Source of the DNA: Thermodesulfobacteriota bacterium
GTDB taxonomy: Bacteria > Desulfobacterota > QYQD01
Assembly: GCA_031082315.1 (NCBI GenBank)
Contig: JAVHLC010000006.1
Location: forward strand, 16,560 to 80,559
Direction: 5' to 3'
Length of the DNA: 64,000 nt
This document shows positions 8,125 to 61,425 of this stretch, piece after piece. Position 1 is the first letter of the stretch. Each line of letters begins with the position of its first letter. The position numbers were made by a program, and so were the translations under genes. The notes below the pieces were generated by a model. It was not told the DNA's origin, searched no databases, and saw nothing but the letters and a program-made list of their open reading frames with translations.

Positions 8125-8129
8125 GTCTC

Positions 8130-46029: not shown

Positions 46030-46108
46030 TGTAGATTGAATAAAAGGCACGAGCGGTCCTTGCCCATCATGGCCCGCCTGTTTTCCAACTGAAAGGCCAT
46101 CGGTTTAT

Positions 46109-48202
46109 ATGTCCTTCTGGGCAATGTTAAGGAACAGACTTATACCGGAAAGCTTAAAGGCCAAGACAATACTTGGCGTCGGGATAATTTTGCTTACAGT
46201 CATGGGCGCTTTCAACTATCTTGCCATAGTTACCCAGGTTAAACGTCTTACGGATGAGAATAGAAAGATGGCCCTGGAGATAAGTAACACCGTCATAAAG
46301 GGGATAGAGTATCCCATGCTTGAGGGCGATATGGATAAAGTCCAGGCCATATTGGAGAGGCTGGGTACCCTGGAAGATTTGAAGGTGGTTCATCTCTGTG
46401 ATGAAAACGGCATTATCAGGCATAACGGGACAGCCCGTTATGATGTCGGGAGGAAGGCCATTTCTCAGGTTACCTTCGAGGCCCTGCGCATCGGCAAGCT
46501 GGCACACGGATTGGAAAAACACCATTTTGATTCTGCTAGTGTAGAGATATTACGTTATGCCATCCCTATTCATAATGAAAAGGCGTGCTATAAGTGCCAT
46601 GGGTCTGAAAAGCCTATCCTGGGGGTGCTATCCGTCGGATTTAGCCGGGACCCGATTCGCAAGATGCTGGCCTCTGTGCGTGGCCAGAATCTATTCTTGG
46701 CCGTAGTCTCGCTGTCGGTGGTTGTTTTTTTCCTGACCTTGTGGCTCAATAGATACATTGTCCGGCCGCTTGCCCGGTTGACCGGGTTAGCTGATGAGAT
46801 CAGCCGGGGCAAATATGTCCCTGGAAGTGGAAAATTCCCGAGGCGGGCCGTTCACTGCTGGGAATTATTGGATTGCAATAAAAAGGATTGTCCCGCATAT
46901 GAACGGAACAGCATACCCTGCTGGTATGTGCCTGATACACTGTGTTTTGGCGAGCCGTCGGGAAAATTTCCTGAAAAGATACAACAGTGCGCAGAATGTC
47001 CTGTTTATAAGCGTCATAAAGGAGATGAAATAGTAAAGCTTCAAGACGCCTTTCGACACATGCTCCATAAGTTGAGCGCTTATGAGAAAGAACTTCGGGT
47101 ATCTGAGGAAAAATACAGACTTTTGTTTAATGCCAATCCTGACCCGATTTTTATTATAGACAGGGATAAGTTCCGGATACTGGACGTTAACGAGAGGACT
47201 TTAGAGCGTTATGGTTACTCAAGGGAAGAATTATTAGAGATGTCTTTTGACAGTCTGGGCCATAAACCAACAGGAGAGGTTATATCTGGGTTCAAAGAGC
47301 TATCGCCCGGGGAATGCGGATTCTTTACGAAGAAAAGGCACACGCATAAAGATGGGCGCCCATTTTATGTGAATATTACCGTTTGTCCGGCAAGATACAT
47401 GGGGATGGACGCATTAATTGTAGCGACGACCGATATTACGGAGAGTGTAGAAAAAGAGGCCCAGCTTATTCAGGCCGGCAAGATGACTACTATTGGTACC
47501 ATGGCCTCCGGCATTGCCCATGAATTGAATCAGCCGTTAAACGTACTCAAGATCGGGAGTGATTTCCTTTTGAAAATGATTAGACGGCGTGAAAAGATTG
47601 ATATCGAAGAGTTGAAGATTGTGGCCGAGGAAATTAGCGGTCATGTGGACCGGGCGTCCGGGATTATTAATCATTTGCGGGAGTTTTCCAGGGCATCTAC
47701 CCCGGTGCGGTCGTTAATGGATATTAATAAACCGATTCAGGACGTGTTTAAGGTATTGGGTCAGCAACTAAGACTGCATCAAGTAGAGATTAAGCTTGAC
47801 CTGGCCAAGGACTTACCTCCAATAATGGCCGACCATAACAGATTGGAACAGGTTTTCATCAACATGGTGACTAATGCGCTGGATGCTATAGATGAGAAGG
47901 TTGAAAAGATGGGGACAGAGGCCGGGGGAATGTCTATAACTATAAAGTCATTCCTGGAAGACGGGCGGGTTGTAGTTGTGGTATCCGATACTGGAATAGG
48001 GATTCCGGATCATATTAAGGACAAGATATTTGAGCCGTTTTTTACCACTAAAGAGGTGGGCAGGGGCACGGGACTGGGCATGTCCATTAGTTATGGAATT
48101 GTCCGTGATTACGGGGGAACCATAGATTTAAAGAGTGAAGCAGGTCTCGGCACAACTTTTGAGTTGAGATTCCCTGTCCATAGTAAGACATCGGAGAATT
48201 AA
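46109..48202 (+). CDS. sensor histidine kinase (periplasmic CXXCH domain, HAMP with Cys-rich insertion, PAS, HisKA, HATPase)
   Basis: TM1 about aa 20-42 and TM2 about aa 195-216. CYKCH at aa 160-164. Seven Cys lie between aa 250 and 297 (HCWELLDCNKKDCP ... IPCW ... LCF ... CAECP). H-box SGIAHELNQP. N, G1 and G2 boxes present (NMVTNALDA, DTGIGI, GRGTGLGMS). Confidence 0.92.
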   Translation: MSFWAMLRNRLIPESLKAKTILGVGIILLTVMGAFNYLAIVTQVKRLTDENRKMALEISNTVIKGIEYPMLEGDMDKVQAILERLGTLEDLKVVHLCDENGIIRHNGTARYDVGRKAISQVTFEALRIGKLAHGLEKHHFDSASVEILRYAIPIHNEKACYKCHGSEKPILGVLSVGFSRDPIRKMLASVRGQNLFLAVVSLSVVVFFLTLWLNRYIVRPLARLTGLADEISRGKYVPGSGKFPRRAVHCWELLDCNKKDCPAYERNSIPCWYVPDTLCFGEPSGKFPEKIQQCAECPVYKRHKGDEIVKLQDAFRHMLHKLSAYEKELRVSEEKYRLLFNANPDPIFIIDRDKFRILDVNERTLERYGYSREELLEMSFDSLGHKPTGEVISGFKELSPGECGFFTKKRHTHKDGRPFYVNITVCPARYMGMDALIVATTDITESVEKEAQLIQAGKMTTIGTMASGIAHELNQPLNVLKIGSDFLLKMIRRREKIDIEELKIVAEEISGHVDRASGIINHLREFSRASTPVRSLMDINKPIQDVFKVLGQQLRLHQVEIKLDLAKDLPPIMADHNRLEQVFINMVTNALDAIDEKVEKMGTEAGGMSITIKSFLEDGRVVVVVSDTGIGIPDHIKDKIFEPFFTTKEVGRGTGLGMSISYGIVRDYGGTIDLKSEAGLGTTFELRFPVHSKTSEN

Positions 48203-48203
48203 G

Positions 48204-49724
48204 GTGTCAACACTGCTGCTGATTGATGACGAAGAAGGCATAAGGAAGGTTTTATCCCTTTCATTAAGGAAAGACGGGTATCAGGTGCTAACGGCGGAAA
48301 ATGGCGGGAAAGCTCTGGAAGCGTTCCGTCGTAATCTCCCGCGGGTTGTTTTGACCGATATAAAGATGCCCGGCATGGATGGCATTGAGGTCCTGAAAAT
48401 AATCAAGCAGATCGAACCTGATACGGAAGTGATAGTTATTACGGGACATGGTGAGCTGGAATTAGCCATCCAGGCCCTCCAGCTTGGGGCTTCTGATTTT
48501 ATCACCAAACCGGTAAGCGATGAGGCCCTTTCCATTGCCCTTAAAAGGGCCGAGCAGAAGCTGGAGATGAAACGGAGGCTCAAAGAGTACACCCATGACC
48601 TGGAAAGTATGGTAAAAGCGGCCACAGATGAGTTGAGGCGGAGATATGAATTTGAGGATAAGCTTATCCAGGCATCTATTGATGGCATAGTGGCTACCAA
48701 CGAGAAGGGCAGTGTACTAATTTTCAACGAGGGGGCCTCAAGAATATTCGGTTATTCCCGCCTGGAGGCCATAAGGGGAATGGATATAGAGGACCTTTAT
48801 CCGGCAGAAATCGCTCGGGAGATCAAAGAAGGATTATATGGCAGAAAATACGGAGAAGAACATATTTTCAGGTGGAAAGAAATAAATGTCAAGGCTAAAG
48901 ATGGTCAGGAGATGCCGGTAAGGTTTTCCGGCGCTATACTGTATGAAAAAGAGGAAGTAGTGGGCAGCGTCGGCTTTTTACAGGATTTAAAAGAGATTAA
49001 ACGGTTGGAGCAGGACCTGATCGAGTCGGAAAGGCTGGCTGCCATAGGCCAGACCGTGGCCGGCCTGGCCCATTGCGTTAAGAATATCTTATACGGGCTT
49101 AAGGGGGGGGTTTATGTGGTAAATACCGCCTTTAAGAGTAATAACCCTGAACAGCTAAAGACCGGCTGGGATATGGTTAACCGTAATATCGGCAAGGTCT
49201 CTGATCTGGTTATGGATTTGCTCAATTATTCCAAAGAACGCGAACCCGACTACCAGAGATGTTTTCTAAATGCCATTGCCGGTGAAGTCTGTGACCTTAT
49301 GGAGCTAGCGGCTCAAGAGGTCGGCGTAAAAATAATTCGTAATTTTGACCAGGCTATTGGAGAGGTAGCTTTAGATCCAAAGGGAATACACCGCTGTGTG
49401 CTCAATTTGGTCTCCAACGCCATTGACGCCTGTCATTTCGACCTTGACAGGAAAAAGGATTGCGTTGTAGAAGTAAAGACAGCCCTTGAGGATAAGGATA
49501 CAGTGGTGATTGAGGTCTCTGACAATGGCTGTGGTATGGATGAGGAGGTCAAGAACAAGATTTTTACCTCTTTTTTTAGTACCAAGAGTGGCGCAGGCAC
49601 CGGATTAGGACTGCTTGTGACACAGAAGATAATCAAGGAACACGGTGGAACCATCACTGTGGAATCGGAGCCTGGGAAAGGGTCAACTTTTGCCATTCGC
49701 CTTCCATTGAGAGAAAACGTCTGA
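48204..49724 (+). CDS. hybrid response regulator-histidine kinase (REC-PAS-HisKA-HATPase)
   Basis: GTG start 1 nt after the preceding stop. The REC is closely paralogous to that of 44152..46029. PAS domain (IDGIVATNEKGSVLIFNEGASRIFGY), H-box AGLAHCVKN, and ATPase boxes (NLVSNAIDA, DNGCGM, GTGLGL). Confidence 0.9.
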   Translation: MSTLLLIDDEEGIRKVLSLSLRKDGYQVLTAENGGKALEAFRRNLPRVVLTDIKMPGMDGIEVLKIIKQIEPDTEVIVITGHGELELAIQALQLGASDFITKPVSDEALSIALKRAEQKLEMKRRLKEYTHDLESMVKAATDELRRRYEFEDKLIQASIDGIVATNEKGSVLIFNEGASRIFGYSRLEAIRGMDIEDLYPAEIAREIKEGLYGRKYGEEHIFRWKEINVKAKDGQEMPVRFSGAILYEKEEVVGSVGFLQDLKEIKRLEQDLIESERLAAIGQTVAGLAHCVKNILYGLKGGVYVVNTAFKSNNPEQLKTGWDMVNRNIGKVSDLVMDLLNYSKEREPDYQRCFLNAIAGEVCDLMELAAQEVGVKIIRNFDQAIGEVALDPKGIHRCVLNLVSNAIDACHFDLDRKKDCVVEVKTALEDKDTVVIEVSDNGCGMDEEVKNKIFTSFFSTKSGAGTGLGLLVTQKIIKEHGGTITVESEPGKGSTFAIRLPLRENV

Positions 49725-49774
49725 TGTATGAAGGCCGGAGGATAGAGTCTTTAAAAAACACAGGAGGATATATT

Positions 49775-50167
49775 ATGGGGAAAAAGGTGCTTGTTGTAGA
49801 TGATGACGCTGATGTGAGGACATTTGTTACCACTGTTGTTGAGACAAACGGCTATACGCCTATTGTGGCGACAAATGGTGAAGAGGCGATGGCCAAGGTA
49901 AGGGGAGATAAACCGGATTTGATAGTTTTGGATGTCCTAATGCCGCGGGAGAGCGGGATCAGGATGTACCGTGAATTGAAAACAGACGATGCGTTAAAGA
50001 CCATTCCGGTAGTCATCTTATCCGGGATTGCCAAACGGACCTTCCTCCGCTCTCAGGCCGCGCTGACAGAGTTCGGTGGACAGGCCGTGCCTGAGCCGGT
50101 GGCCTATCTGGAAAAGCCGGCAGAGCCGGAAGAACTGGCGGGGACAATAAAAAAGATATTAGGCTAG
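49775..50167 (+). CDS. single-domain response regulator (CheY-like)
   Basis: AGGAGG 6-7 nt upstream of the ATG. KVLVVDDDADVR, LIVLDVLMP and YLEKP, with an insertion before the KP motif. Confidence 0.9.
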   Translation: MGKKVLVVDDDADVRTFVTTVVETNGYTPIVATNGEEAMAKVRGDKPDLIVLDVLMPRESGIRMYRELKTDDALKTIPVVILSGIAKRTFLRSQAALTEFGGQAVPEPVAYLEKPAEPEELAGTIKKILG

Positions 50168-50188
50168 AAGGTAATTATTTTTTTAGAG

Positions 50189-50228
50189 GGGCCCGGGCAC
50201 TCAATCATAGAGTATCCGGGCCCTTTTA
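50189..50228. terminator. possible bidirectional terminator between the response regulator and usp
   Basis: GGGCCCGG ... CCGGGCCC stem (19-nt loop), flanked by a T-run on each side. Confidence 0.45.
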
Positions 50229-50233
50229 TGTTA

Positions 50234-51100
50234 TTATGGAACGAGGAGGGTGGGTAAATCCAATCTTTCTGCTGCTTCGTGTGAGACACTGCCTAACCAC
50301 CTTGCTCTCCAGGCGCCTTTTCCGGTTGTCCCGGTGACAATCATAGTGGCGTCGAGCTCGCGGGCCGCAGTTTCTATTTGGTCCACGACTTTTCCTACGT
50401 AAAGGTGGGTATCGGCCTCAATCTTGGCCCCTTCAAGGGTCAGGCGAACCTCTTCCAGCCGCTTTTTGCTTTCCTTCTCTATCTTTTGCAGCTCTGTCTT
50501 AGAGCGCCCTTCCATATCTTTTTCGGTCAGGATATGTATAATCTCTGCTTTCTTTATTATGTTTTTTAGCCCCAGGAGGTATTCTATCGCCCTGGCACAG
50601 GGGGCAGACCAATCTGTGGCCAAGAGGGGCTTCTCGAAGGGGGCCTTATTGATCTTGCCGTCTTTGGTCATGTATTTATGGACCAGGACAGGGACAGTGG
50701 TCCTCCGGAGAAGTTCCAGGGTCTGGGAGTCTATATAGAGCCCCTTCATTTTGGCCTTTTTGTGGCGACCGGTGACAACAAGATCTACTTTTTCGACCTC
50801 TGCCGTGGACAAGATCTTTGGGACCGGATCACCCACTACGACGTAGGCGCCGCATTCCATGCCCATTTCAAACAGGCTTTCCGCCCAATTGATAAACCGG
50901 ACATTGGCCATTTCTTTGAGTTTTAGTTCTTCACTCTTAAGATAGCCGGTTCCCCGGCGCATGGCCACCTTTTCTCTCTCTATTACATGTAAAAATACTA
51001 CGTGATTAAGACCCACCTTGCGAAGATCCATCAGCGACTGAAGGGCATCAAACCACAATTCCTCGAAGTCGGTTACGAAGAGTAGCTTCTTAATTTGCAT
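50234..51100 (-). CDS. tandem universal stress protein (2 x UspA domain)
   Basis: Two USP domains, each ending in the ATP-binding-type motif (VVTGRHKK..., IVTGTTGKGAWRARWLGSVSHEAAERLDLPTLLV). GGAGGA precedes ATG 51100. Confidence 0.88.
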   Translation of the reverse strand: MQIKKLLFVTDFEELWFDALQSLMDLRKVGLNHVVFLHVIEREKVAMRRGTGYLKSEELKLKEMANVRFINWAESLFEMGMECGAYVVVGDPVPKILSTAEVEKVDLVVTGRHKKAKMKGLYIDSQTLELLRRTTVPVLVHKYMTKDGKINKAPFEKPLLATDWSAPCARAIEYLLGLKNIIKKAEIIHILTEKDMEGRSKTELQKIEKESKKRLEEVRLTLEGAKIEADTHLYVGKVVDQIETAARELDATMIVTGTTGKGAWRARWLGSVSHEAAERLDLPTLLVP

Positions 51101-51377
51101 ATTCACACATCCTCCCCTGTAAAGATAAAAAACGTTTTGCATTTTGGCCTACAAACAAGCCGCTTGTCAAGATTTATGTTTATGTTTTCTGAAAATATTT
51201 TCGTGCACTGCGTAACTCGATGGTTCGCACCTTGATTTTGATGAATTCGTAAAAATCGTAATTCCCCTCGCCCGGCGAGGGAGAGGGAGTTTACGAGACC
51301 TTTTACGAGACCATCATTTTTGGTATTGAGATGGCTCTCTTGGATAAAAGATACATACTGTACAATAAAAACACAGA

Positions 51378-51402
51378 TTACTGTACGATATTTATACAGT
51401 AA
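51378..51402. promoter_or_regulatory. candidate upstream activator site (perfect inverted repeat)
   Basis: TTACTGTA-N9-TACAGTAA. Related half sites are ACTGTACA at 51357..51364 and TTGTACAC near 51459. The site is about 170-220 bp upstream of the sigma54 promoter candidate. Confidence 0.4.
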
Positions 51403-51566
51403 TTTAGTATTTAAAATACAAGGATTATCCAAATAAAGAAAATTATGGTGTATTAAAATTGTACACTAATGTCCGAAGGGTTTATTAGTTCTCAGCATCA
51501 CAATTAACGGATTTTTGTTAAGAATAACAGCAGGATGAAATAATGGGCTGAGTTGTATCCTGGTTT

Positions 51567-51582
51567 AGGCATAGAAGTTGCT
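51567..51582 (+). promoter_or_regulatory. candidate sigma54 (-24/-12) promoter for the usp-mrp transcription unit
   Basis: aGGCATagaagTTGCT against consensus TGGCACG-N4-TTGCW. GG and GC have the correct 12-nt register. About 150 nt upstream of GTG 51729. Confidence 0.5.
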
Positions 51583-51728
51583 GTATTTAACAACGCGAGA
51601 TTAAGCTTAAATTATTTTTATCGGCAGATAAGGGGCCAAACTTAAATATTTACTTTGGCCGGGGCGGGGTATAACTGGATGATGTGGCGCTTAGGGTTAT
51701 GCTATGAGCCAGAATTCGGAGGATTAAT

Positions 51729-52508
51729 GTGGCATTAGAGAGATTGCTTTATGCGACAAACCTTGGCGAACCCAAGAGTAGTTTATTGGAGTCGCTGCTG
51801 GAGACCACAAAGGTGGGGCTGCGAGAGGTGGTGTTCCTCCATGCCGGAGGAAAAATTATGGCCGAACGCTATTCCCAGGAGTGGCAACCGCGGTTGTCCG
51901 GCTCGGGGGCTAAGGTTTGGGCCCATGGGGAAGAAGGGAATCTTGTTGCTTCCATCTTAAGAGCGGCCGCTGGTAATAGTTTTTCGCTTGTGGCGGCAGA
52001 GTTTAGCAGTGATGGCACAAGAGCGGTTTCCAGGCGTGACAGCAGGCGTCTCGTTAAAGGTCTGACCGTACCCGTTTTGATAGCCAGGCGAGCGAGGGAA
52101 ATGGCGCAGCCTCCGGCTGCGGGGGTCTTTGATCACCTGGTTTTTGCCACTGACTGGTCGCCGGCCTCAGAGCGGGCGGCCTCTTTTATCCAGGGACTTA
52201 ACGGCCTGGCGAAGGAAATGGATATCGTGAATGTTATTCAAAAGAAGCTGACCGTGGGTGAGATGCGGGGGCTTAAGAAAAAGCTCCAGGACACACGCCG
52301 GATATTTTCTTCTCAGGGGATAGACGCGGAATTTCATATCTACGCCGGCCGGACGGCTGAGGAGATTATGCTGGCGGCACGGGATTATCATGCCACGCTG
52401 ATCGTCATGGGAAACAGCCGGAAGGCCGCTGTACGGAAGATCTTCCCGGGCCGGACGGTATATAAGGTAGCAGAGGAAACGACGGTACCGGCATTATTTA
52501 TTCCTTAG
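51729..52508 (+). CDS. tandem universal stress protein (2 x UspA domain)
   Basis: GGAGGA 6 nt upstream of the GTG. The second domain carries IVMGNSRKAAVRKIFPGRTVYKVAEETTVPALFI. Confidence 0.85.
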   Translation: MALERLLYATNLGEPKSSLLESLLETTKVGLREVVFLHAGGKIMAERYSQEWQPRLSGSGAKVWAHGEEGNLVASILRAAAGNSFSLVAAEFSSDGTRAVSRRDSRRLVKGLTVPVLIARRAREMAQPPAAGVFDHLVFATDWSPASERAASFIQGLNGLAKEMDIVNVIQKKLTVGEMRGLKKKLQDTRRIFSSQGIDAEFHIYAGRTAEEIMLAARDYHATLIVMGNSRKAAVRKIFPGRTVYKVAEETTVPALFIP

Positions 52509-52523
52509 ATTTAACCACAGACA

Positions 52524-52541
52524 GAGCATAGCGCTATGTTC
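52524..52541. promoter_or_regulatory. 18-bp near-perfect palindrome between usp and mrpE
   Basis: GAGCATAGC|GCTATGTTC (one mismatch). Function unknown; it could be an operator or an RNA hairpin. Confidence 0.3.
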
Positions 52542-52593
52542 TCCGTGATTAAGTTTTTGACAATACGTTAGGACAAACAAAGGAGTAAAAGGC

Positions 52594-53313
52594 ATGGAAG
52601 TGACGGTCTTAATACAGGCTACAGACGAGGCCTTTAAGATCATAGAAGAGGCCAGAAATCGTGCCTTGGACGTACTCAATACCTCGGTTAGATTTACGGC
52701 CGAGGCCAAGGTCCTTGAGGAGAAGAAGGTACAGGACATCTTTAAGGGGGCGGAGCGGACAAAATCCGAGGTCCTGAGCTTTCTGGCCACCTTTGCCTTG
52801 TTGTTCTTTCCCTTCTGGATGCCGCTTTCCGGGTTCTTTGATGTCTTCCACCTCAGCATCGGGGTGGGTTGCTGTGCCTTGGTGGCCTATATATCCCACG
52901 ACCTCCTCTTTGTTAATGTCCGGGTGGGGGATATGCGCACGATAGTAAAGAGGTTTTTCGCCTATATCCCCTGGTTGCTATACCAGATCTATCTGGCCAG
53001 CGTCCACGTAATCAAGATTGTTTTGAAGCCCAAGATGCCTATAGATCCCCGGATAATAAGGTTTAAGACAAAATTGCAAACCGATATCTCGATGGTAACC
53101 TTTGCCAACTCCATAACCCTTACCCCGGGTACTATCACCGTAGAGATAAAGGACGGCGAGTACTACGTGCATGCTATCGATGAAGAGGTGGCCTATGACC
53201 TTCTCTACGGCGGTGAGATGGAGGACAGGGTGGCCCATGTCTATATGGAGGCGGAGCATGTCTATGTCCAGGATGTATTGGATGTGGCCCGTATATATGG
53301 GGCTTTGAGATAA
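52594..53313 (+). CDS. mrpE: Mrp/Mnh antiporter subunit E homologue with N-terminal extension
   Basis: MnhE core: IPWLLYQIYLASVHVIKIVLKP ... VTFANSITLTPGTITVEI. It is preceded by a ~60-aa charged helix and extra TM segments not usual for MrpE. Confidence 0.85.
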   Translation: MEVTVLIQATDEAFKIIEEARNRALDVLNTSVRFTAEAKVLEEKKVQDIFKGAERTKSEVLSFLATFALLFFPFWMPLSGFFDVFHLSIGVGCCALVAYISHDLLFVNVRVGDMRTIVKRFFAYIPWLLYQIYLASVHVIKIVLKPKMPIDPRIIRFKTKLQTDISMVTFANSITLTPGTITVEIKDGEYYVHAIDEEVAYDLLYGGEMEDRVAHVYMEAEHVYVQDVLDVARIYGALR

Positions 53314-53353
53314 AGATGGAAACGATGTGACTTAAGCAGGAGGCGGTAGAGAA

Positions 53354-53806
53354 ATGATAATAACCTACGAGGATATAATTATAAGGACCCTTACCCGGGT
53401 GCTGGCGCCGTTTTTACAGCTCTATGCCCTCTATGTTATTGCCCATGGGCACTACAGTCCGGGCGGCGGATTCCAGGGAGGCGTTATACTCGCGGCCAGT
53501 TTTATCCTGATGGTCATTTCTTTCGGGCTGGATATGGCCAGGAGGCGGTTGTCTGAAAAGGTCGATATCATATTCCTCTGTCTCGGACTTTTAATTTATT
53601 CAGGGACCGGGGCCTTATGCCTGGCCCTGGGCGGAAATTTTCTGGATTATAGAGAGCTGACAAAAATCCTGCCCGTAACCATAGCGAGAGCCAGGGCCCT
53701 CGGTATTCTGTTTGTGGAGACAGGCGTCGGCTTTGGCGTCATGGCCGTTATGACCTCTTTGGTCTATGATATTTCCACCGGCGGGTTGCCGCCTGAACGC
53801 AGGTAA
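53354..53806 (+). CDS. MnhB-domain membrane protein (C-terminal half of MrpB, MbhF-like)
   Basis: Signature AHGHYSPGGGFQGGVILAA followed by TM helices. Confidence 0.85.
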   Translation: MIITYEDIIIRTLTRVLAPFLQLYALYVIAHGHYSPGGGFQGGVILAASFILMVISFGLDMARRRLSEKVDIIFLCLGLLIYSGTGALCLALGGNFLDYRELTKILPVTIARARALGILFVETGVGFGVMAVMTSLVYDISTGGLPPERR

Positions 53807-53867
53807 TAACAGGTAATAAATAGAACACCGGGAAGAGCAAGGGCGGAAAGGCACAGGGAAGGGCATC

Positions 53868-54824
53868 TTGGAGATTGAAGACATCCAGAAACAATCTATA
53901 AAAATGCAGCAAGTCTATAACATGATCTTAAATCTTGCTCCAACGGATGTTACTGTTCTGATCCAGGGAGAAGATGGGACAGAAAAGGAATGGGTGGCTG
54001 AGGCTATCCATGCCCATAGTTCCCGGAGAGACAAGGCATTCGTGGTTATTAATTGTGCCGCTTATCCGCGTTCCTTATTGGATGACGAACTATTTGGCTA
54101 TGAAAAACGTATAAGTAAGGGCGCTTCACATCACAAAAAAGGGCGATTGGAAAGGGCCGATGGCGGCACCGCCTTCTTAAATGATATTGACGAGGTACTC
54201 CCCTTATCTCAGGTCAAACTTCTAAAATTTCTGGAAACGATGGAATTTGAAAGGCCGGGGGGACGGGGGAAGGTACGGGTAAATGTACGTATGATAACGG
54301 CCGCGGATAAGGATCTAAAAGAGGAAGTGGAGAAGGGGACATTTAATGAAGAGCTGTACTACCGCCTCAGCATTATAAATATATATATCCCGCCCCTGAG
54401 ACAGAGAAAAGAAGACATACCTTTCTGGGTTGAATATTTTATGGAGCGGTTATCCGGTGAGGGTAAAGGTGTCATCAAAAAGATTACCCCCAAGGCCATG
54501 CAGTTTTTGATGGATTATTCCTGGCCCGGCAATGTCAAGGAGTTGGAGAACACCATCCAGTATGCTTATCTCACGACGCGAGACGAGCTTATTGACCAGG
54601 ATGATCTCATCCCCAGACTGCGGAATGAAGTGACCAGAGAAGAGGGGAAGGGGGTAATCTCATTCGAGGATAACGAGAAAAGATTTCTGCTGAAGATGTT
54701 GAGGGAAGAAAACTGGAACAAGCTCCAGGTGGCCAAAAAACTCAAGATCAGCCGAAGTACCCTATATGCCAAGCTAAAGAAATACAATCTGGTAAGCAAA
54801 CCCTCGTCAGTAGCAGAGGTGTGA
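53868..54824 (+). CDS. truncated sigma54-activator paralogue (AAA+-HTH only) with degenerate ATPase and sigma54-contact motifs
   Basis: Colinear with aa ~330-625 of 44152..46029. Walker A is GEDGTEKE, the GAFTGA position reads KRISKGAS, Walker B is FLNDIDE and the R-finger context is FNEELYYRL. The [23 protein letters not shown] is conserved. The TTG start is uncertain (ATG 53904 is an alternative). Confidence 0.85.
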   Translation: MEIEDIQKQSIKMQQVYNMILNLAPTDVTVLIQGEDGTEKEWVAEAIHAHSSRRDKAFVVINCAAYPRSLLDDELFGYEKRISKGASHHKKGRLERADGGTAFLNDIDEVLPLSQVKLLKFLETMEFERPGGRGKVRVNVRMITAADKDLKEEVEKGTFNEELYYRLSIINIYIPPLRQRKEDIPFWVEYFMERLSGEGKGVIKKITPKAMQFLMDYSWPGNVKELENTIQYAYLTTRDELIDQDDLIPRLRNEVTREEGKGVISFEDNEKRFLLKMLREENWNKLQVAKKLKISRSTLYAKLKKYNLVSKPSSVAEV

Positions 54825-54863
54825 GGGTAAATACAAAAACGTAATGTTCTACGGGGTGTCACT

Positions 54864-55139
54864 ATGATCGATATGCAGCGATTCTTTATGGGCGTGAGCA
54901 TTGCATTATTGTTTCTGGCATTCCTTTGCCTCTACCGGGCTATCTGGGGGCCCCTTATAACGAACCGGATAGTAGGCGTGGGGGCCATCGGAACCAAGAC
55001 CCTGATTGTTTTGCTCCTTATGGGTCTCATATACGACCGGCTGGATATGTTCGTGGATATCAGTATTGTTTATGCGCTTCTGAACTTTATCGGCACCCTG
55101 GCTGCGTCCAAGTATCTTGAAATGATGGGAGAGGTTTGA
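54864..55139 (+). CDS. mrpF: Mrp/Mnh antiporter subunit F
   Basis: Three-TM ~90-aa protein. LYRAIWGPLITNRIVGVGAIGTKT and LLNFIGTLAASKYLE are typical of MnhF/PhaF. Confidence 0.85.
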   Translation: MIDMQRFFMGVSIALLFLAFLCLYRAIWGPLITNRIVGVGAIGTKTLIVLLLMGLIYDRLDMFVDISIVYALLNFIGTLAASKYLEMMGEV

Positions 55140-55141
55140 GA

Positions 55142-55504
55142 ATGGATACCATGACCATAGGATCGATACTGACCGCGATTTTTCTTTTGTTGGGTTTGCT
55201 TTTCTTCACCGGGGGCACCATCGGGCTCTTACGCCTGCCTGACTTCTATTGCCGTATGCATGCCACGGGCAAGAGTGATACCCTGGCAGTTCTCTTATGC
55301 CTCGTCGGTCTAGCCATCTACAATGCTTTTGCGGGCAACTTTGCGCTACCCTATATCCTGGTGAGCATAAAGATTATCTTTATCGCTATCTTCTGGTTTC
55401 TGGCCGGCCCCGTATCCACCCATGCCCTATATAGAGCCGCCTTTAGATGTGGTGTCAAGCCCTGGACCTTGGATAATCAGTTTAAGGAGGTAGATAAAGA
55501 ATGA
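55142..55504 (+). CDS. mrpG: Mrp/Mnh antiporter subunit G
   Basis: GTIGLLRLPDFYCRMHATGKSDTL is the MnhG signature. ATG 55142 is preferred over the TTG at 55136 that overlaps the mrpF stop. Confidence 0.88.
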   Translation: MDTMTIGSILTAIFLLLGLLFFTGGTIGLLRLPDFYCRMHATGKSDTLAVLLCLVGLAIYNAFAGNFALPYILVSIKIIFIAIFWFLAGPVSTHALYRAAFRCGVKPWTLDNQFKEVDKE

Positions 55505-55746
55505 TAGTCCCACTGGATATTATACTGCTTGTCTTTGTGGTAATAACCGGTATTGCGGCCCTACAGATAAAAGATCTTTTGGGCGCTACGATTATCCTCG
55601 GGTCCTTCAGCTTCTTCATGTGCCTTATTTACACGGAGATGGGGGCGGTGGATGTGGCCTTTACCGAGGCCTGCGTGGGGGCTGGTGTGGGCACCGTCCT
55701 GTTTATCGCCGCAGTCCATAAGACGAAAAGGAGGGCGAAAGATTGA
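55501..55746 (+). CDS. DUF4040/MbhD-like membrane subunit
   Basis: 81 aa with two to three TM segments. The pattern AALQIKDLLGATIILGSFSFFMCLIYTEMGAVDVAFTEACVGAG matches the MrpA C-terminal/MbhD module. Shares a 4-nt overlap with each neighbour. Confidence 0.8.
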   Translation: MIVPLDIILLVFVVITGIAALQIKDLLGATIILGSFSFFMCLIYTEMGAVDVAFTEACVGAGVGTVLFIAAVHKTKRRAKD

Positions 55747-56036
55747 AAGCGTTTGCTTTGCTCACGGTAATCATAACCGGTGTCATGCTCGTATACGGGG
55801 CAGAGGATTTTCCCAGGTGGGGCGACCCGGATCAGCCGGGCAGCGTGCACGTTTCGCCCCGTTATACCCAGGGTGCATACATAGAGACGGGGACTCCGAA
55901 TATAGTTACGACGGTGGTTGCTGATTACCGGGGCTATGACACCATGGGGGAGACCACGGTTATCTATACGGCCGGGATGGCCTGTATCCTGATGTTACGG
56001 AAGAAAAAGAGGGGCGGGGGAGAAAACAATGCTTGA
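55743..56036 (+). CDS. MnhB N-terminal-type subunit (MbhE-like)
   Basis: NIVTTVVADYRGYDTMGETTV is the DYRGxDT(L/M)GE signature of the first half of MrpB. TTG start overlaps the preceding stop. Confidence 0.8.
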   Translation: MKAFALLTVIITGVMLVYGAEDFPRWGDPDQPGSVHVSPRYTQGAYIETGTPNIVTTVVADYRGYDTMGETTVIYTAGMACILMLRKKKRGGGENNA

Positions 56037-56415
56037 GTACATCATCAGTAAATATAACTACTGGGTCTATATCTTTCTGATGATGCTTGGCCTCTACGGC
56101 ATGATCGGGAAGAGGAATCTGGTAAAAAAACTTATAGGTATGAATATCTTTCAGGTGGCGATAATCCTCTTTTATATTTCTATCGGGTCCAAGGTGGGGG
56201 GCGACATCCCTATACTGACCGCGGAGGACCTCCACGGTATGGCCGATCCCGGTAAGTACCTGAACCCAATACCCCACGTCCTGATGCTTACCGCCATCGT
56301 GGTGGGTATCGCCACAACCGGAGTGGCCCTGGCCATAATAATCATGATTTATAACCGGTATAAGACCCTGGCTGAGGATGAGATATTAGAGATTCGTAAG
56401 AAAACTGGAGCCTGA
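56029..56415 (+). CDS. mrpC: Mrp/Mnh antiporter subunit C (NuoK-like)
   Basis: Three-TM NuoK-like protein (GLYGMIGKRNLVKKLIGMNIFQVAIILF, VLMLTAIVVGIATTGVALA). Confidence 0.88.
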   Translation: MLEYIISKYNYWVYIFLMMLGLYGMIGKRNLVKKLIGMNIFQVAIILFYISIGSKVGGDIPILTAEDLHGMADPGKYLNPIPHVLMLTAIVVGIATTGVALAIIIMIYNRYKTLAEDEILEIRKKTGA

Positions 56416-56416
56416 G

Positions 56417-57922
56417 ATGAGCTACGGATACGAACAATGCATCGTATTAATTGTAACCGTCCCGCTAATCACCTCTTTTCTTGTGGTGCTACTAGGGTGG
56501 TTTAAGAGGTGGCTATGTTACCCGTTAGTCCTGGCTGCCTTAGGGGTATCTTTTCTATGCTCCCTGGGCATTTTGGACCTGGTTATGGAGAGAGGGACGA
56601 TTCACTACTGGCAAGGGGGCTGGGAGCCGCCCTGGGGCATCGAGTACGTGGTAGATCACCTCAACGCCTTTATGCTGGTGATGCTGACGTTCATTGGCCT
56701 TATGGTAGCCATCTACTCAAAAAAGAGTATCGAGCGGGAAATTCCTGAAAAGTTAGTCCCATACTACAGTATCTTCCTGCTCATGGTGACCGGCCTCATT
56801 GGCATCACGGTCACCGGAGACCTCTTTAACGCCTTTGTCTTTCTGGAGATTGCATCCCTCACTGCCTATGCCCTCATAGCCGTGGGTGAAGACGGGGCGC
56901 CTATGGCGGCATTCAACTATGTAATCATGGGCACCATAGGGGCCTGTTTTTACTATCTGGGGATCGGCTACGTGTACATTGCGACCGGTTCGCTGAACAT
57001 GGCCGATTTGTCCCAGCTATTACCCGCCCTATATCATAACAAGGCGGTGCTGGTCGGCTTTGCCTTGTTTACGGTGGGAATCGCTGTCAAAATGGGTCTC
57101 TTCCCGTTGCATGTGTGGCTTCCGGATGCATATACCTATGCGCCTTCTGCCACCAGCGCGGTTATCGCCCCCCTGTTCACCAAGGTTATGGCCTATCTCA
57201 TGGTCCGGATTTTCTTTACGTTGTTTAAACCGCACTTTTCCATAGACCTGATCCCAATAACTCAGATCCTGACCTGGGTGGCGGCTGGCGGCATTATCGC
57301 CGGTTCGATCCTGGCCATCGCCCAGACCGATTTGAAAAGGATGCTGGCCTATTCTTCCATAGCGAACATCGGGTATATCGTGCTGGGTATCGGGCTGGCC
57401 AACCGGATGGGGCTTACCGGCGGCTTACTGCACATTTTGAACCATGCCTTTATGAAAGGGACCCTGTTCCTGGTGGCCGGCGGAATAATGTACAAGATGG
57501 GTATGCGGGATATTACGCAGTTTCGGGGACTGCATAAAAAGATGCCCTTTACCATGGCTGCCTTTACCATCGCCGCCCTCTCCATGATAGGCATACCGCC
57601 TACTGGTGGGTTCTTTAGCAAGTTTTATCTCGTCTTAGGCGCGATCGATGCAAGACAGTGGGCCTTTATAGTGGTTCTGTTGGCTAGCAGTCTGTTAAAC
57701 GCCGTTTACTTCTTTCGGGTTATAGAGAATATCTACCTGGAACCACCGGTGACTGCCTATGCCACCGACGGCGGGACACACGAGGAGATAAAGCGGGATG
57801 AGCTTCCTTTAAGTATGCTTGTCCCCATCCTTATTATGGCGGCTGGAGTAGTCTTGTTAGGTATCTTTAATGAACGCATTATCGCCTTTATCATTCGCTT
57901 TGCGGTTCCGGCAAGCTTTTAA
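56417..57922 (+). CDS. mrpD: MrpD/NuoN-M-type antiporter-like subunit (copy 1)
   Basis: Proton_antipo_M pattern: FVFLEIASLTAYAL, LHVWLPDAYTYAPSATSA, KRMLAYSSIANIGY, HILNHAFMKGTLFL. Confidence 0.92.
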   Translation: MSYGYEQCIVLIVTVPLITSFLVVLLGWFKRWLCYPLVLAALGVSFLCSLGILDLVMERGTIHYWQGGWEPPWGIEYVVDHLNAFMLVMLTFIGLMVAIYSKKSIEREIPEKLVPYYSIFLLMVTGLIGITVTGDLFNAFVFLEIASLTAYALIAVGEDGAPMAAFNYVIMGTIGACFYYLGIGYVYIATGSLNMADLSQLLPALYHNKAVLVGFALFTVGIAVKMGLFPLHVWLPDAYTYAPSATSAVIAPLFTKVMAYLMVRIFFTLFKPHFSIDLIPITQILTWVAAGGIIAGSILAIAQTDLKRMLAYSSIANIGYIVLGIGLANRMGLTGGLLHILNHAFMKGTLFLVAGGIMYKMGMRDITQFRGLHKKMPFTMAAFTIAALSMIGIPPTGGFFSKFYLVLGAIDARQWAFIVVLLASSLLNAVYFFRVIENIYLEPPVTAYATDGGTHEEIKRDELPLSMLVPILIMAAGVVLLGIFNERIIAFIIRFAVPASF

Positions 57923-57937
57923 CCGGGAGGAGACAGG

Positions 57938-59431
57938 ATGGAAATCGTATATTCAATAAAGCCGCTACTTGCTGTTCTGGTATCACTTATTGCTGCCCCG
58001 CTGATCCTTCTTACGGGAGAAAAGCACAAGAATGTCCGGGAATTTTGGACGATTCTGGCGGCACTCATCAAATTCTCCGTGGTGGTCTCCATGATTCCAC
58101 TGATTACCGATGGAAAGATCATAGAGTACACAATTCTACCCATAATTCCCGGTGTCCCCTTGCAGCTAAGAGTGGAGCCCTTCGGGATGATTTTTGCCCT
58201 TCTGTCTTCTACCCTGTGGATTGCTACTTCCTTCTATTCCATAGGCTACATGCGGGGGCTGAATGAGCACGCCCAGACGCGTTACTTCTTTGGCTTTGCC
58301 ATGTGCATGTCTGCCGCTATTGGTATTGCGTTTTCCGCCAATCTGTTGACTCTGTTTGTCTTCTACGAGATTCTTACGATCTCCACCTGGCCACTGGTGG
58401 TTCATAAAGAGACCCAGGAGGCCGTCATGGGCGGTCGAAAGTACCTCTTCTATACCCTGACCGCCGGCACTCTGATACTGTTTTCAACAGCGATGCTCTA
58501 CAACCTGACCGGGACCCTGGATTTTCGGGCGGGCGGCTTTCTGGCCGGACATGGGTCACCTGCCATACAGACTTTACTCCTGATAACCCTTATTCTCGGG
58601 TTCGGGGTGAAGGGCGGGATCATGCCTATGCATGAATGGCTGCCCACAGCCATGGTCGCCCCCACACCGGTCAGCGCCCTCCTCCATGCCGTGGCCGTGG
58701 TGAAAGCCGGTGTCTTTGGATGTCTCCGGGTTATCCTTTTTATCTTTGGCCCCAAGCTCCTCGGTGATCTGGGATTGTGGTTGCCCCTGGCCTATTTTGT
58801 TTCCTTCACCATACTTGCTGCCGGATTGTTGGCTTTAGGGCAGGATCATCTCAAGCGGCGACTGGCATTTTCGACGATAAACTGCCTCTCTATTATGGTG
58901 TTGGGAGCCGCTTTATTATCGAAGAGCAGTATTACCGGTGGGATACTGCATATGGCTTTCCATGGTTTTATGAAAATCACCCTCTTTTTCTGTGCCGGGG
59001 CCATATATGTCAAAACCCATAAGGAATACGTTAGTCAACTGGATGGCCTGGGCAGGCAGATGCCGCTTACCTTCGCTGCCTTTACTATAGGCGCTATGGG
59101 CCTCGCAGGGGTTCCGCCGGTAAATGGCTTCATAAGTAAATGGTACCTTTGTCTAGGGGCCATGGAGTCCAAAGAAATAGTCTTTCTCTTTATACTGCTG
59201 ACCAGTGCCTTGCTGGACGTGGCCTTCTTTTTCCCCATTATTTATAAGGCCTTCTTCAAGAAGCCCTTAGATGATGTCAAACCGCATTTTGACGAGGCTC
59301 CGATGTTTATGGTCGTCCCGCTTGTGGTTACCGCCGTCATGGCGGTGATCCTGGGGGTTTATCCGGATGCCTTTTTCAGATTCTTTAACATAACTGCCTT
59401 GGCTGTGAATAACATTCTGGGGGTAAGTTAA
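57938..59431 (+). CDS. mrpD: MrpD/NuoN-M-type antiporter-like subunit (copy 2)
   Basis: FVFYEILTISTWPLV, MHEWLPTAMVAPTPVSALLHA, KRRLAFSTINCLS and HMAFHGFMKITLFF. Confidence 0.92.
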   Translation: MEIVYSIKPLLAVLVSLIAAPLILLTGEKHKNVREFWTILAALIKFSVVVSMIPLITDGKIIEYTILPIIPGVPLQLRVEPFGMIFALLSSTLWIATSFYSIGYMRGLNEHAQTRYFFGFAMCMSAAIGIAFSANLLTLFVFYEILTISTWPLVVHKETQEAVMGGRKYLFYTLTAGTLILFSTAMLYNLTGTLDFRAGGFLAGHGSPAIQTLLLITLILGFGVKGGIMPMHEWLPTAMVAPTPVSALLHAVAVVKAGVFGCLRVILFIFGPKLLGDLGLWLPLAYFVSFTILAAGLLALGQDHLKRRLAFSTINCLSIMVLGAALLSKSSITGGILHMAFHGFMKITLFFCAGAIYVKTHKEYVSQLDGLGRQMPLTFAAFTIGAMGLAGVPPVNGFISKWYLCLGAMESKEIVFLFILLTSALLDVAFFFPIIYKAFFKKPLDDVKPHFDEAPMFMVVPLVVTAVMAVILGVYPDAFFRFFNITALAVNNILGVS

Positions 59432-59435
59432 TATT

Positions 59436-59645
59436 ATGAAGACCTTCAAGTACATTTTTTTCGGCTCGATTGCCCTGAGCTGTCTGCTGGGGCTGGTTTT
59501 TACCAATCCACATCCCCATTTCTGGTGGCAAAAGATACCGGTGTTTGATGCGGTCTTTGGATTCATCGGATGCATCGTCATCATCGTTGTCTCCAAGGCG
59601 CTCGGTCATGGCTGGCTGCAGAAGAAGGAGGGTTATTATGATTGA
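59436..59645 (+). CDS. small two-TM membrane protein of unknown function
   Basis: 69-aa ORF packed between two antiporter-like genes (4-nt gap upstream, 8-nt overlap downstream). Two hydrophobic segments. I recognise no family. Confidence 0.5.
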   Translation: MKTFKYIFFGSIALSCLLGLVFTNPHPHFWWQKIPVFDAVFGFIGCIVIIVVSKALGHGWLQKKEGYYD

Positions 59646-61425
59646 TATAGTTCCTCCAGCCTTCATATATATCGTCGGGGCGTTCCTCATTCCCCTGTTA
59701 GGGAACAGGCTCAGGCTTTTGAAACAGGCCTTTTTGCTCCTGATCCCGGCCATTGCATTCTGGGATCTTCTCAACATGCCCCAGGGCACCTACTGGATTT
59801 ATCAATTCCTGGGATATGAGCTTATCTTAGGCCGCGTTGACAAACTGAGCATGGTATTCGGCTACATCTTTGTCATCATGTCATTCCTGGGGATGGTCTA
59901 TGCGATCCACATAAAAGAAGACGGGCAGCACGTGGCGGCATTTCTGTATATGGGGAGTACGCTTGGGGTGGTCTTTACCGGAGATCTTTTCACCCTGTTC
60001 GTTTTCTGGGAGATTATGGCCGGGGCCTCTGTTTTTCTGGTCTGGTACAGGCGGGAACAGGCGGCCCTCGACGCCGGATTCAGATACGTTTTTGTGCACC
60101 TGGCTGGCGGTGCGATTCTGTTGGCCGGTATTGTCATGCACGTGGTCGAGACGGGATCAACGGCCTTTTCACTGCTGAAGTCCGATACACTGGCTTCAAA
60201 TTTCATCCTTTTCGGTTTCTTGCTCAATGCCGCGGTGCCTCCACTCCATGCCTGGCTGGCGGATGCCTATCCGGAGGGGACAGTGACCGGCAGCGTATTC
60301 ATGACTGCCTTTACCACGAAAAGCGCCGTATACGTACTGGCGCGAGGATTTGCCGGAACCGAGCTTCTGATATGGCTTGGGGCGATCATGGCCCTCTATG
60401 GTGTGGTTTACGCGGTTCTCGAGAATGATATCCGAAGGCTTCTTGCCTACCACATTATCAGTCAGGTCGGATATATGGTCTGTGGCGTCGGTTTGGGAAG
60501 TGAATTAGCCATAAATGGTGCAAGTGCCCATGCCTTCTGTCACATTCTTTACAAGGCATTACTTTTCATGGGTACCGGCGCGGTGATTTACGTGACGGGA
60601 CGGCGTAAGATGACCGAATTACAGGGTAGAAACCTGTACCGGATGATGCCCATTACCGTCACACTCTATATGATTGGCGCCTTTTCCATCTCGGCCGTAC
60701 CCTTATTCAATGGTTTTGTCAGCAAGACCATGGTCATAGCCGCTGCCGGCATGCTGAACCGACCGGCTATCGAACTTATGCTTCACCTTGCCTCTATAGG
60801 GACATTCCTCCATACGGGTCTGAAGCTTCCCTGGGGTACCTGGTTTGGCAAGCCTACCGGGCAGGAGGACAAAATAGAGGCTAAAGAACCGCCACTGAAC
60901 ATGCTGGTAGCGATGGGGCTGACGGCATTTTTATGCATACTCACTGGCGTCTATCCCCAGGTACTGTATAATATCCTTCCTTATCCGGTTGATTTCCATC
61001 CTTATACTGCGGATAAGGTCGTAGCCGCGATGCAGATGCTGTTACTGACAGCCGCTGCTTTCTGGCTCTACATAGACAAGCTGGGGGGAGAACCAACGGT
61101 CAGCATGGATACGGATTGGTTTTATAGAATGTTTGGCCGTGGCGTTGCGTGGTTCTGTGAAAAGCCGCTGAACGCATTACGCTCAGGAGTGCAAGCTTTT
61201 CTTACCAGTGATGTGAAGGGTTTCGCACTTCTTGCCAAAAACCCGTATCGAGCGGGCCGACTTATTGCTTCCTACTTCCGTGGCGACCCCAAGGATAAAT
61301 ATCAGGCGGTCCGAAACGAGCCATATAATGTGAATACTTACAGGATACCTATCGGCGTATCGGCCGGTGTGGCCACCATATTCCTGTTTCTCCTTACCCT
61401 GATCTATTTCGCCGTCGGGGGATGA
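59638..61425 (+). CDS. MrpA/NuoL-type antiporter-like subunit (copy 3) with C-terminal amphipathic helix plus terminal TM
   Basis: AAGGAGGG 6 nt upstream of ATG 59638 (the ORF-track start 59545 overlaps the small ORF). FVFWEIMAGASVFLV, LHAWLADAYPEGTVTGSVF, RRLLAYHIISQVGYM. The tail DTDWFYRMFGRGVAWFCEKPLNALRSGVQAFL ... IPIGVSAGVATIFLFLLTLIYFAV resembles a NuoL-type lateral helix with its anchor. Confidence 0.9.
   Translation: MIDIVPPAFIYIVGAFLIPLLGNRLRLLKQAFLLLIPAIAFWDLLNMPQGTYWIYQFLGYELILGRVDKLSMVFGYIFVIMSFLGMVYAIHIKEDGQHVAAFLYMGSTLGVVFTGDLFTLFVFWEIMAGASVFLVWYRREQAALDAGFRYVFVHLAGGAILLAGIVMHVVETGSTAFSLLKSDTLASNFILFGFLLNAAVPPLHAWLADAYPEGTVTGSVFMTAFTTKSAVYVLARGFAGTELLIWLGAIMALYGVVYAVLENDIRRLLAYHIISQVGYMVCGVGLGSELAINGASAHAFCHILYKALLFMGTGAVIYVTGRRKMTELQGRNLYRMMPITVTLYMIGAFSISAVPLFNGFVSKTMVIAAAGMLNRPAIELMLHLASIGTFLHTGLKLPWGTWFGKPTGQEDKIEAKEPPLNMLVAMGLTAFLCILTGVYPQVLYNILPYPVDFHPYTADKVVAAMQMLLLTAAAFWLYIDKLGGEPTVSMDTDWFYRMFGRGVAWFCEKPLNALRSGVQAFLTSDVKGFALLAKNPYRAGRLIASYFRGDPKDKYQAVRNEPYNVNTYRIPIGVSAGVATIFLFLLTLIYFAVGG

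Follow-up and report, generated by a model that had tools for sequence, protein, structure and literature searches.

A degenerate, receiver-less paralogue of a sigma-54 activator encoded within a usp-mrp operon of Thermodesulfobacteriota: a candidate feedback regulator of that operon

Introduction

Activators of sigma-54-dependent transcription, the bacterial enhancer-binding proteins (bEBPs, here EBPs), are usually controlled via their N-terminal domains or by unrelated partners such as PspA, NifL, HrpV and FleN. A gene at 53868..54824 of a 64,000-nucleotide stretch of Thermodesulfobacteriota bacterium DNA (NCBI GenBank assembly GCA_031082315.1, contig JAVHLC010000006.1, positions 16,560 to 80,559 of the forward strand; hereafter the window) raises the question of what role is left to an EBP-like protein that has an ATPase (AAA+) module with altered catalytic motifs, a helix-turn-helix (HTH) domain and no input domain, and that is encoded among the genes of an Mrp-type membrane complex. 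An earlier note, made from the DNA letters, had read the product, here termed dEBP (degenerate EBP), as an operon-encoded competitor or poison subunit giving negative feedback. The comparative evidence set out below indicates that dEBP is very probably a functional, non-catalytic regulator belonging to a module of activator, enhancer and sigma-54 promoter; the narrower proposal, that it is a pseudo-ATPase paralogue of the adjacent response-regulator EBP and damps the usp-mrp operon by negative feedback, is about evenly balanced.

Loss of catalytic motifs on a preserved fold

The 318-residue product aligns by BLASTP with residues 321-615, the AAA+ and HTH part, of the 625-residue activator encoded upstream in the window, at 55% identity over 298 residues (E = 1e-115), and matches the Pfam families Sigma54_activat (PF00158; 2e-53), AAA_lid_14 and HTH_8 (PF02954; 4e-11). 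Neither a receiver nor a GAF domain is detected by Pfam, and no N-terminal sensory domain precedes the AAA+ module; since a stop codon lies directly 5' of the dEBP start and mnhB ends at 53806, 61 nt before it, there is no room for a hidden N-terminal domain. Both the colinearity with the activator and the missing receiver and GAF domains, as stated in the earlier note, are thereby upheld. No NCBIfam model reaches its cut-off for dEBP and no match to the Mrp families was found, the protein having a soluble AAA+-HTH fold and not being an integral membrane MrpA-G subunit; in public annotation, members of its family are labelled 'sigma-54 dependent transcriptional regulator'. Just upstream, a 10-bp tandem duplication at 53801..53820 (two copies of caggtaataa) spans the mnhB stop codon and provides two in-frame stop contexts.

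Relative to the full-length activator, Walker A reads GEDGTEKE in place of GESGTGKE, with the second P-loop glycine replaced by glutamate; the GAFTGA sigma-54-contact loop (L1) reads EKRISKGAS in place of ERGAFTGAV; Walker B reads AFLNDIDE in place of IFLDEIGE (DE to ND); and the conserved-arginine segment reads FNEELYYRL in place of FREDLYYRL. These changes, all listed in the earlier note, are present and fall on the canonical motifs of ZraR (1ojl, the best sequence match of dEBP, E = 2.6e-74), NifA and NtrC4 in a gap-free alignment, although that note's account of the arginine segment holds in part: the first arginine has become asparagine, whereas the second, which we take to be the residue usually named the arginine finger (R-finger; R299 of NtrC1, in NtrC1/PspF numbering), is retained. 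Two changes absent from the note were found in addition, in sensor II (GNVKELEN vs GNVRELEN, Arg to Lys) and in sensor I (AAD vs ATN). In AAA+ ATPases, any one of the following is expected to abolish ATPase activity or to reduce it severely: a Gly-to-Glu change in the P-loop, ND or S/E at Walker B, loss of the sensor II arginine, or loss of the first arginine. By every sequence criterion dEBP is non-catalytic, and it is predicted to lack ATP-dependent remodelling of the sigma-54 holoenzyme; clearly derived from the bEBP family, it nevertheless appears to fail the catalytic features that define that family.

An AlphaFold2 model of dEBP built from the family alignment has a mean predicted local distance difference test (pLDDT) score of 85, and Foldseek matches it to the AAA+ domains of NtrC1, ZraR, FleQ and PspF with a target-normalised TM-score of ~0.9 and a root-mean-square deviation (rmsd) of 2.4-2.8 Å, NtrX being also among the top structural matches. 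In this model the AAA+ scaffold is intact, and chemistry alone is predicted to have been lost. The DNA-reading helix had been described as essentially unchanged, and a single residue differs between dEBP and the full-length activator over the 20 residues of the HTH.

Family-wide fixation and purifying selection

A search of ~5.8 billion proteins recovered ~89 clusters of dEBP homologues in all, 18 at 71-100% identity and ~70 at 53-60%, the members being short AAA+-HTH proteins of 292-383 residues as called. GE[EDN]GTEK replaces GESGTGK in every member; NVKEL or NIKEL replaces NVREL in all but three, which have NVNEL; FNEE replaces FRED in most; and Walker B is altered throughout, reading FLSE, FLNE or FLDR in the wider family. 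The GAFTGA threonine is never retained, the wider clade having GAF[E/D/N]GA and the window's own clade a variable or deleted L1 loop (RISKGA, GTAKGA, EEN-----G), and in the wider clade both arginines of FREDLYYRL are gone (FNEEFSYML).

When 42 family sequences were compared with 39 canonical EBPs, the fixed replacements were G39E, E231Q and L19M (42/42 each) and R224K (41/42); position 39, the second P-loop glycine, is Gly in 39/39 canonical EBPs, and T84, D105, G108, R160 and P171 are also consistently changed, with GExGTEK, NVKELEN and ENxIQ as the signature motifs of the family. Fixation of new residues in this way is a sign of selection towards a new state rather than of drift. One possibility is that the AAA+ module is locked into mimicking a defined state with no nucleotide bound, by way of the invariant P-loop Glu, sensor II Lys and ENxIQ Gln.

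Pairwise Nei-Gojobori ratios of non-synonymous to synonymous substitution (dN/dS) between the window and its relatives are 0.05-0.08 for dEBP, with dS saturated; for comparison, the Mrp genes give 0.03-0.16 and the full-length activator 0.08-0.13. By domain, the ratio is 0.04-0.07 in the AAA+ alpha/beta part, 0.05 in the lid and 0.03 in the HTH, and is relaxed only in a 15-residue linker. A simple competitor for DNA would need the HTH alone; selection on the AAA+ part speaks for contacts between proteins as well, in mixed rings or in docking on the parent. The earlier note had asked whether orthologues are under purifying selection, which they are, and had allowed for a lack of orthologues or for neutral decay, to which the ~89 clusters and their strong constraint are the answer; a pseudogene is ruled out by the dN/dS values together with the family-wide conservation.

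The family is a narrow lineage, as indicated by an exhaustive profile search of a library clustered at 50% identity, in which the whole family falls on one representative; no second GTEK-type cluster was present among the best 150 matches in this library, a search unsuited to counting members. Source names, where present, are mostly Thermodesulfobacteriota, Desulfobacterales, Desulfofervidaceae and 'Deltaproteobacteria', with cluster P0074 assigned to Anaerolineae. A control scan of genome contigs with generic EBP peptide patterns gave, among the matches listed, canonical EBPs only, at <=50% identity and with Walker A and sensor II intact.

The longest gene calls (359-383 aa; P0020, P0022-24, P0027) come from the lineage of L006, one of the related loci described below, and have an N-terminal extension which in L006 (10001..10123) overlaps an enhancer site and a TGGCAC-N5-TTGCT promoter; the true start in this lineage is probably the TTG giving MKLQEIRERS. 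In two other EBP-like proteins, P0176 (717 aa) and P0121 (942 aa), Sigma54_activat modules stand in tandem, two or three to a protein, and one of them is degenerate (GEPGTMKE with PGNVSEL; GESGIDKK); these proteins may represent an 'in cis' version of combining an active AAA+ module with a dead one.

Origin by duplication of the parent activator

In a neighbour-joining tree the dEBP family forms a single clade whose sister group is that of the neighbouring full-length activators, with mirrored subclades. This topology fits a single, ancient duplication of the AAA+-HTH module of the parent, both copies being inherited together thereafter; dEBP has shed the receiver domain, the ATP-site residues and the loop that contacts sigma-54. 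Four short matches with intact motifs (P0063, P0067, P0071, P0077) fall among the full-length activators in this tree, possibly as pieces of them. In every genome examined, dEBP and the full-length activator have in common the HTH recognition helix, SRSTLYxKLKKY, and the NWNK helix before it.

Divergence along the cluster is uneven. Between the window and L001, dS is ~0.2 for the full activator, usp and the first antiporter-like subunit and ~0.46 for mnhE, mnhB and dEBP; between the window and L002, it is 0.27 for the full activator and 1.9 for dEBP. Such unevenness along 44152..57922 suggests recombination or mosaic ancestry in the cluster.

A predicted sigma-54 operon with a conserved enhancer

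Around dEBP, the gene order of the window is MnhE, MnhB, dEBP, MrpF, MnhG, MbhD, MbhE, MnhC and three Proton_antipo_M subunits, and its neighbours confirm the placement between an MnhB-domain gene and mrpF given in the earlier note. Upstream of the operon lie a predicted sigma-54 promoter and three candidate enhancer sites (Table 1). The count of sites carries no weight, TGTAC-N7-GTACA with <=2 mismatches being found 13 times in the whole window against 12.3 expected, that is, at chance; the enhancer is called because the three sites cluster within 107 bp and recur in related loci. No further cluster of TGT-N11-ACA sites was found elsewhere in the window. A strict TGGCAC-N5-TTGC search over the whole window gave nothing relevant, because the promoter here has the form aGGCAT-N5-TTGCt; it was found by a relaxed pattern together with cross-locus conservation. 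The same divergent intergenic region holds a sigma-70-like match (51170..51141, 10/12) for the minus-strand universal stress protein gene. It also holds a stretch of ~60 bp at 51245..51310, missing from the otherwise collinear L001 and L002, with an inverted repeat (CCCCTCGCC/GGCGAGGGAG) and two copies of a direct repeat (TTTACGAGACC), which looks like a small inserted repeat element.

Ten dEBP-family members on contigs (L001-L010, 55-92% identity) form with the window a set of eleven loci. A predicted sigma-54 promoter and TGT-N11-ACA sites lie upstream of dEBP in 11/11, each of the ten related loci having two or three such sites, and dEBP is in or at the head of the usp-mrp cluster in all ten. 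Its location in the middle of the mrp genes, as the earlier note had it, holds for the window and for 8/10 related loci, where dEBP likewise lies between mnhB and mrpF; in L006 and L007 it is upstream of mnhE, and in L006 a promoter just before the true dEBP start makes it the first operon gene. Translational coupling of dEBP to mnhB is implied in L004, L005 and L009 by an overlap between the dEBP start and the mnhB stop, and in L009 hybrid kinase and receiver genes are within the operon as well. A cognate full-length activator was found within the recovered flanks of eight of the ten related loci (in L007 as a 920-aa PAS-GAF-AAA-HTH open reading frame (ORF) not in the gene table), so that, counting the window, dEBP is co-localised with its full-length paralogue in 9/11 loci, with HTH and enhancer context shared; L003 has too little upstream sequence for the activator, and the flanks of L004 show hybrid kinase and receiver genes only. 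Signalling genes, complete or partial, occur in the recovered flanks of L001, L002, L004, L005, L006, L008, L009 and L010. The question, raised in the earlier note, of whether orthologues are always embedded in mrp-like clusters near a full-length paralogue is thus answered in the affirmative for the usp-mrp link (11/11) and in part for the paralogue.

In L007 (Desulfofervidaceae), which also has sites upstream of usp and a TGGCAT-N5-TTGCG promoter (~8003..8177), an extra TGT-N11-ACA pair (TGTATTAAATTTGGACA, TGTCCAAATTTTGGACA) lies inside the operon at 9952..9989, 12-49 nt upstream of the dEBP start, and may be an internal operator or roadblock. An Rnf complex cluster (rnfC/D/G/E/A/B, RseC) adjoins the usp-mrp cluster in L004, L008 and L010, a hint that the two may both serve the homeostasis of ion-motive force or redox state.

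The association was also surveyed from the Mrp side, an MnhE alignment of the 11 loci being used to fetch 80 metagenome loci. Eight sister clusters with the E-B-F gene order, at 58-63% MnhE identity, pass directly from mnhB to mrpF with a gap of <50 nt and no dEBP; no TGT-N11-ACA enhancer site or cognate activator (>50% identity) was found in the recovered flanks of any of the eight, and a sigma-54 promoter match is absent in six of them. One GGGCAT-N5-TTGCC match, common to L091 and L094, lies 495-631 bp 5' of mnhE in these loci, neither of which has a full enhancer. The sole new locus with dEBP, L093, has the cognate activator, promoter and sites too, and in L100 promoter and sites are present and the contig ends inside mnhB. 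That the sister clusters without dEBP are also without enhancer and activator places dEBP with the activator/enhancer/sigma-54 module, apart from the antiporter machinery; its conserved trait, as read from these loci, is membership of an enhancer-dependent predicted sigma-54 operon, not a slot among the mrp genes. An obligate Mrp subunit is ruled out, the eight sister E-B-F clusters existing as gene sets without dEBP.

Table 1. Position and strand of dEBP, its predicted control elements and neighbouring genes in the window
Feature	Position	Strand	Remarks
dEBP gene (degenerate, receiver-less EBP paralogue)	53868..54824	+	TTG start, 318 aa; AAA+, lid, HTH_8
Cognate full-length activator	44152..46029	+	625 aa: receiver, ~200-aa middle region, intact AAA+ (GNVRELEN), HTH_8
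Candidate enhancer site 1, TGTACAATAAAAACACA	51359..51375		TGT-N11-ACA palindrome; conserved in L001, L002; equivalents in other loci
Candidate enhancer site 2, TGTACGATATTTATACA	51382..51398		One of only two matches with <=1 mismatch to TGTAC-N7-GTACA in 64 kb
Candidate enhancer site 3, TGTATTAAAATTGTACA	51449..51465		TGT-N11-ACA
Predicted sigma-54 -24/-12 element, aGGCATagaagTTGCt	51567..51582	+	aGGCAT-N5-TTGCt; ~150 nt upstream of usp; same element in 10 related loci
usp, first operon gene	51729..52508	+	259 aa
mnhE	52594..53313	+	
mnhB-domain gene	53354..53806	+	
Remaining Mrp-type cluster	54864..61425	+	mrpF, mnhG, mbhD-like, mbhE-like, mnhC/NuoK-like, three D/NuoLMN-type antiporter-like subunits (Proton_antipo_M), 69-aa ORF
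Membrane sensor histidine kinase	46109..48202	+	
Receiver-PAS-HATPase hybrid	48204..49724	+	
Single receiver protein	49724..50167	+	
Divergent universal stress protein gene	50234..51142	-	Conserved in related loci
LonB/LonC-like protease	38753..41152	-	Flank
Aldehyde:ferredoxin oxidoreductase	41913..43715	-	Flank
DUF4062 protein	62080..63120		Flank

A proposed mechanism and its alternatives

In the arrangement that we propose, the kinase pathway would activate the full-length EBP, upon which the usp-mrp operon and dEBP would be made together; having no receiver, and with it no off-switch domain, dEBP would not be held off by the signalling pathway, and could occupy the three TGT-N11-ACA sites and/or join the ring of its parent via the DNA-binding dimerisation region and AAA+ interfaces. 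Bringing neither ATP hydrolysis nor a GAFTGA loop, dEBP at the enhancer should lower productive ring activity, leaving fewer productive ATPase/GAFTGA subunits at the promoter, and the outcome would be damped or capped expression of a large, costly membrane complex, a negative autoregulation in trans. Put most specifically, an input-less pseudo-ATPase copy made from a parent-activated operon would co-assemble with the parent on a shared enhancer, by mixed rings or site competition, and set the gain, ceiling or shut-off kinetics of the operon, a detailed form which we hold tentatively and a little short of even confidence. PspF rings mixing active and inactive subunits are reported to have been used experimentally (PMC3467059), and hetero-hexamers of paralogous EBPs that modulate activation are discussed (PMC9542535).

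Several points weigh against damping by dEBP. Its DNA binding, its hetero-oligomerisation and the sign of its effect are predictions. EBP ring assembly often needs ATP binding, and a protein that does not bind nucleotide might not enter rings; moreover, the GAF[E/D]GA loop is conserved in the wider dEBP clade, which suggests that some function facing sigma-54 remains, as opposed to simple decay of the loop. Those EBP paralogues known to be encoded in-operon or co-localised (FleT, HrpR/S, VnfA3 and RedR2) are co-activators, not inhibitors (PMC9542535, PMC7277832), and the in-operon GAFPGA protein DVU2960 failed to bind the enhancer of its operon in an electrophoretic mobility shift assay (EMSA; PMC4641369). 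A co-activator or specificity partner, in which dEBP and the full-length EBP form an obligatory or stimulatory hetero-oligomer as FleQ/FleT or HrpR/HrpS do, would nucleate or stabilise the ring and give positive feedback or a second tier of control; every described EBP paralogue pair co-activates (PMC9542535), fleT is encoded within a FleQ-activated operon (PMC7277832), the AAA+ scaffold of dEBP is under strong constraint, and the second Arg of FREDLYYRL is kept in the window's clade as GAF[E/D]GA is in the wider one. Unlike FleT, HrpR/S and VnfA3 as described, however, the wider clade has lost all catalytic motifs on both the cis and trans faces (FNEEFSYML, NVKEL, GTEK), and the L1 loop is free to vary or vanish in the window's clade, so that co-activation seems unlikely.

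A sigma-54-independent factor of the kind represented by VpsR, NtrX, TyrR and HupR, whose HTH would repress or activate sigma-70 promoters, with the divergent usp or the signalling genes as candidate targets, appears similarly doubtful: the HTH and target sites of dEBP are those of the canonical sigma-54 activator next door, no extra site cluster lies elsewhere in the window, the N-terminal sensory domain that such proteins have is missing, and the setting favours a tie to a sigma-54 promoter and enhancer, although the Walker B change from DE to ND recalls VpsR, loss of GAFTGA is common to all atypical EBPs (PMC6158489), the structural search ranks NtrX near the top, and a good sigma-70-like match (51170..51141, 10/12) shares the divergent intergenic region with the enhancer sites. 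The hit on many motifs at once and the TTG start codon could be taken as signs of a decaying duplication remnant or, conversely, of an ATPase still active with unusual motifs, readings that are together highly improbable. A remnant sits poorly with a frame intact in ~89 clusters (53-100% identity), dN/dS of 0.05-0.08 with dS saturated, invariant replacement residues and translational coupling in L004, L005 and L009; an active enzyme sits poorly with the changes of the P-loop Gly to Glu, of Walker B, of the sensor II Arg and of the first Arg, each of which would, on general AAA+ knowledge, be expected to cripple ATPase activity.

Significance

Should damping of the operon by dEBP be true, a stable dead paralogue in the target operon would constitute a new layer of control, with feedback exerted via AAA+ ring composition or enhancer occupancy; it would provide a clean natural case, in bacteria, of a pseudo-enzyme descended from the protein that regulates it, and artificial PspF mixed-ring experiments would gain direct physiological relevance. 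The current label, 'sigma-54 dependent transcriptional regulator', overstates the capability of dEBP and inflates EBP counts in Desulfobacterota.

Comparison with known systems

Atypical EBPs lacking GAFTGA or ATPase residues include Vibrio cholerae VpsR, Brucella abortus NtrX, Escherichia coli TyrR, Rhodobacter capsulatus HupR, Pseudomonas putida PhhR and Myxococcus xanthus HsfA (PMC6158489). In common with these, dEBP has an EBP-type AAA+ module and HTH, no GAFTGA and non-consensus Walker motifs, its Walker B change from DE to ND being that of VpsR (PMC6158489). Atypical EBPs, however, keep a sensory or receiver domain, act at sigma-70 promoters or as repressors with regulons of their own, and are not paired with an intact paralogue reading the same DNA, whereas dEBP is input-less, shares its HTH with an adjacent canonical activator and is encoded in the predicted sigma-54 operon of that activator; it is further set apart by the P-loop Gly-to-Glu and sensor II Arg-to-Lys changes, essentially fixed in its family (42/42 and 41/42). 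At the other extreme, PspF and the AAA+/DNA-binding constructs of NtrC1 and ZraR have the same two-module AAA+-HTH architecture and, unlike dEBP, are active ATPases with Walker A/B, GAFTGA, R-finger and sensor II intact.

Hetero-oligomeric EBP pairs are rare and have been described as joint co-activators: HrpR/S of Pseudomonas syringae, FleQ/FleT of Rhodobacter sphaeroides, RedR1/2, and VnfA1/A3 of Azotobacter vinelandii (PMC9542535). As in FleT and HrpR/S, an N-terminal regulatory domain is missing from dEBP (PMC7277832, PMC9542535), and as with fleT the gene is encoded in an operon that the partner activates (for fleT, PMC7277832; for dEBP, presumed from the sites). With its catalytic motifs lost, dEBP is not expected to be an ATPase-competent partner jointly required for activation, the pattern taken to mark FleQ/FleT and HrpR/HrpS; it differs from partners of this type, as described, in being without catalytic and sigma-54-contact motifs while keeping its DNA-binding domain. 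FleT lacks a DNA-binding domain.

A closer parallel in location is Desulfovibrio vulgaris DVU2960 (GAFPGA), which lies inside a sigma-54 operon controlled by DVU2956, a co-localisation kept in several genomes (PMC4641369); like dEBP, it is an EBP-like protein with a defective GAFTGA inside the (for dEBP, predicted) sigma-54 operon of a neighbouring canonical EBP. Unlike dEBP, it is listed as a single-component regulator, has one GAFTGA substitution and gave no enhancer binding in EMSA, and no homology or common HTH with its neighbour is reported (PMC4641369), the comparison with dEBP being one of descriptions. Literature searches returned no description of a dead in-operon EBP paralogue, nor of sigma-54 control of Mrp clusters, yet the statement in the earlier note that no example of this arrangement has been described is too strong, the atypical EBPs including VpsR (PMC6158489), FleT (PMC7277832) and DVU2960 (PMC4641369) being partial precedents. 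None of the systems compared joins all four features of dEBP, namely complete motif loss, absence of an input domain, the HTH of the parent and location in the target operon of the parent; dEBP is accordingly best described, on present predictions, as an atypical or pseudo-EBP that would serve as the in-operon partner of its parent, with precedents for the parts and novelty in the combination.

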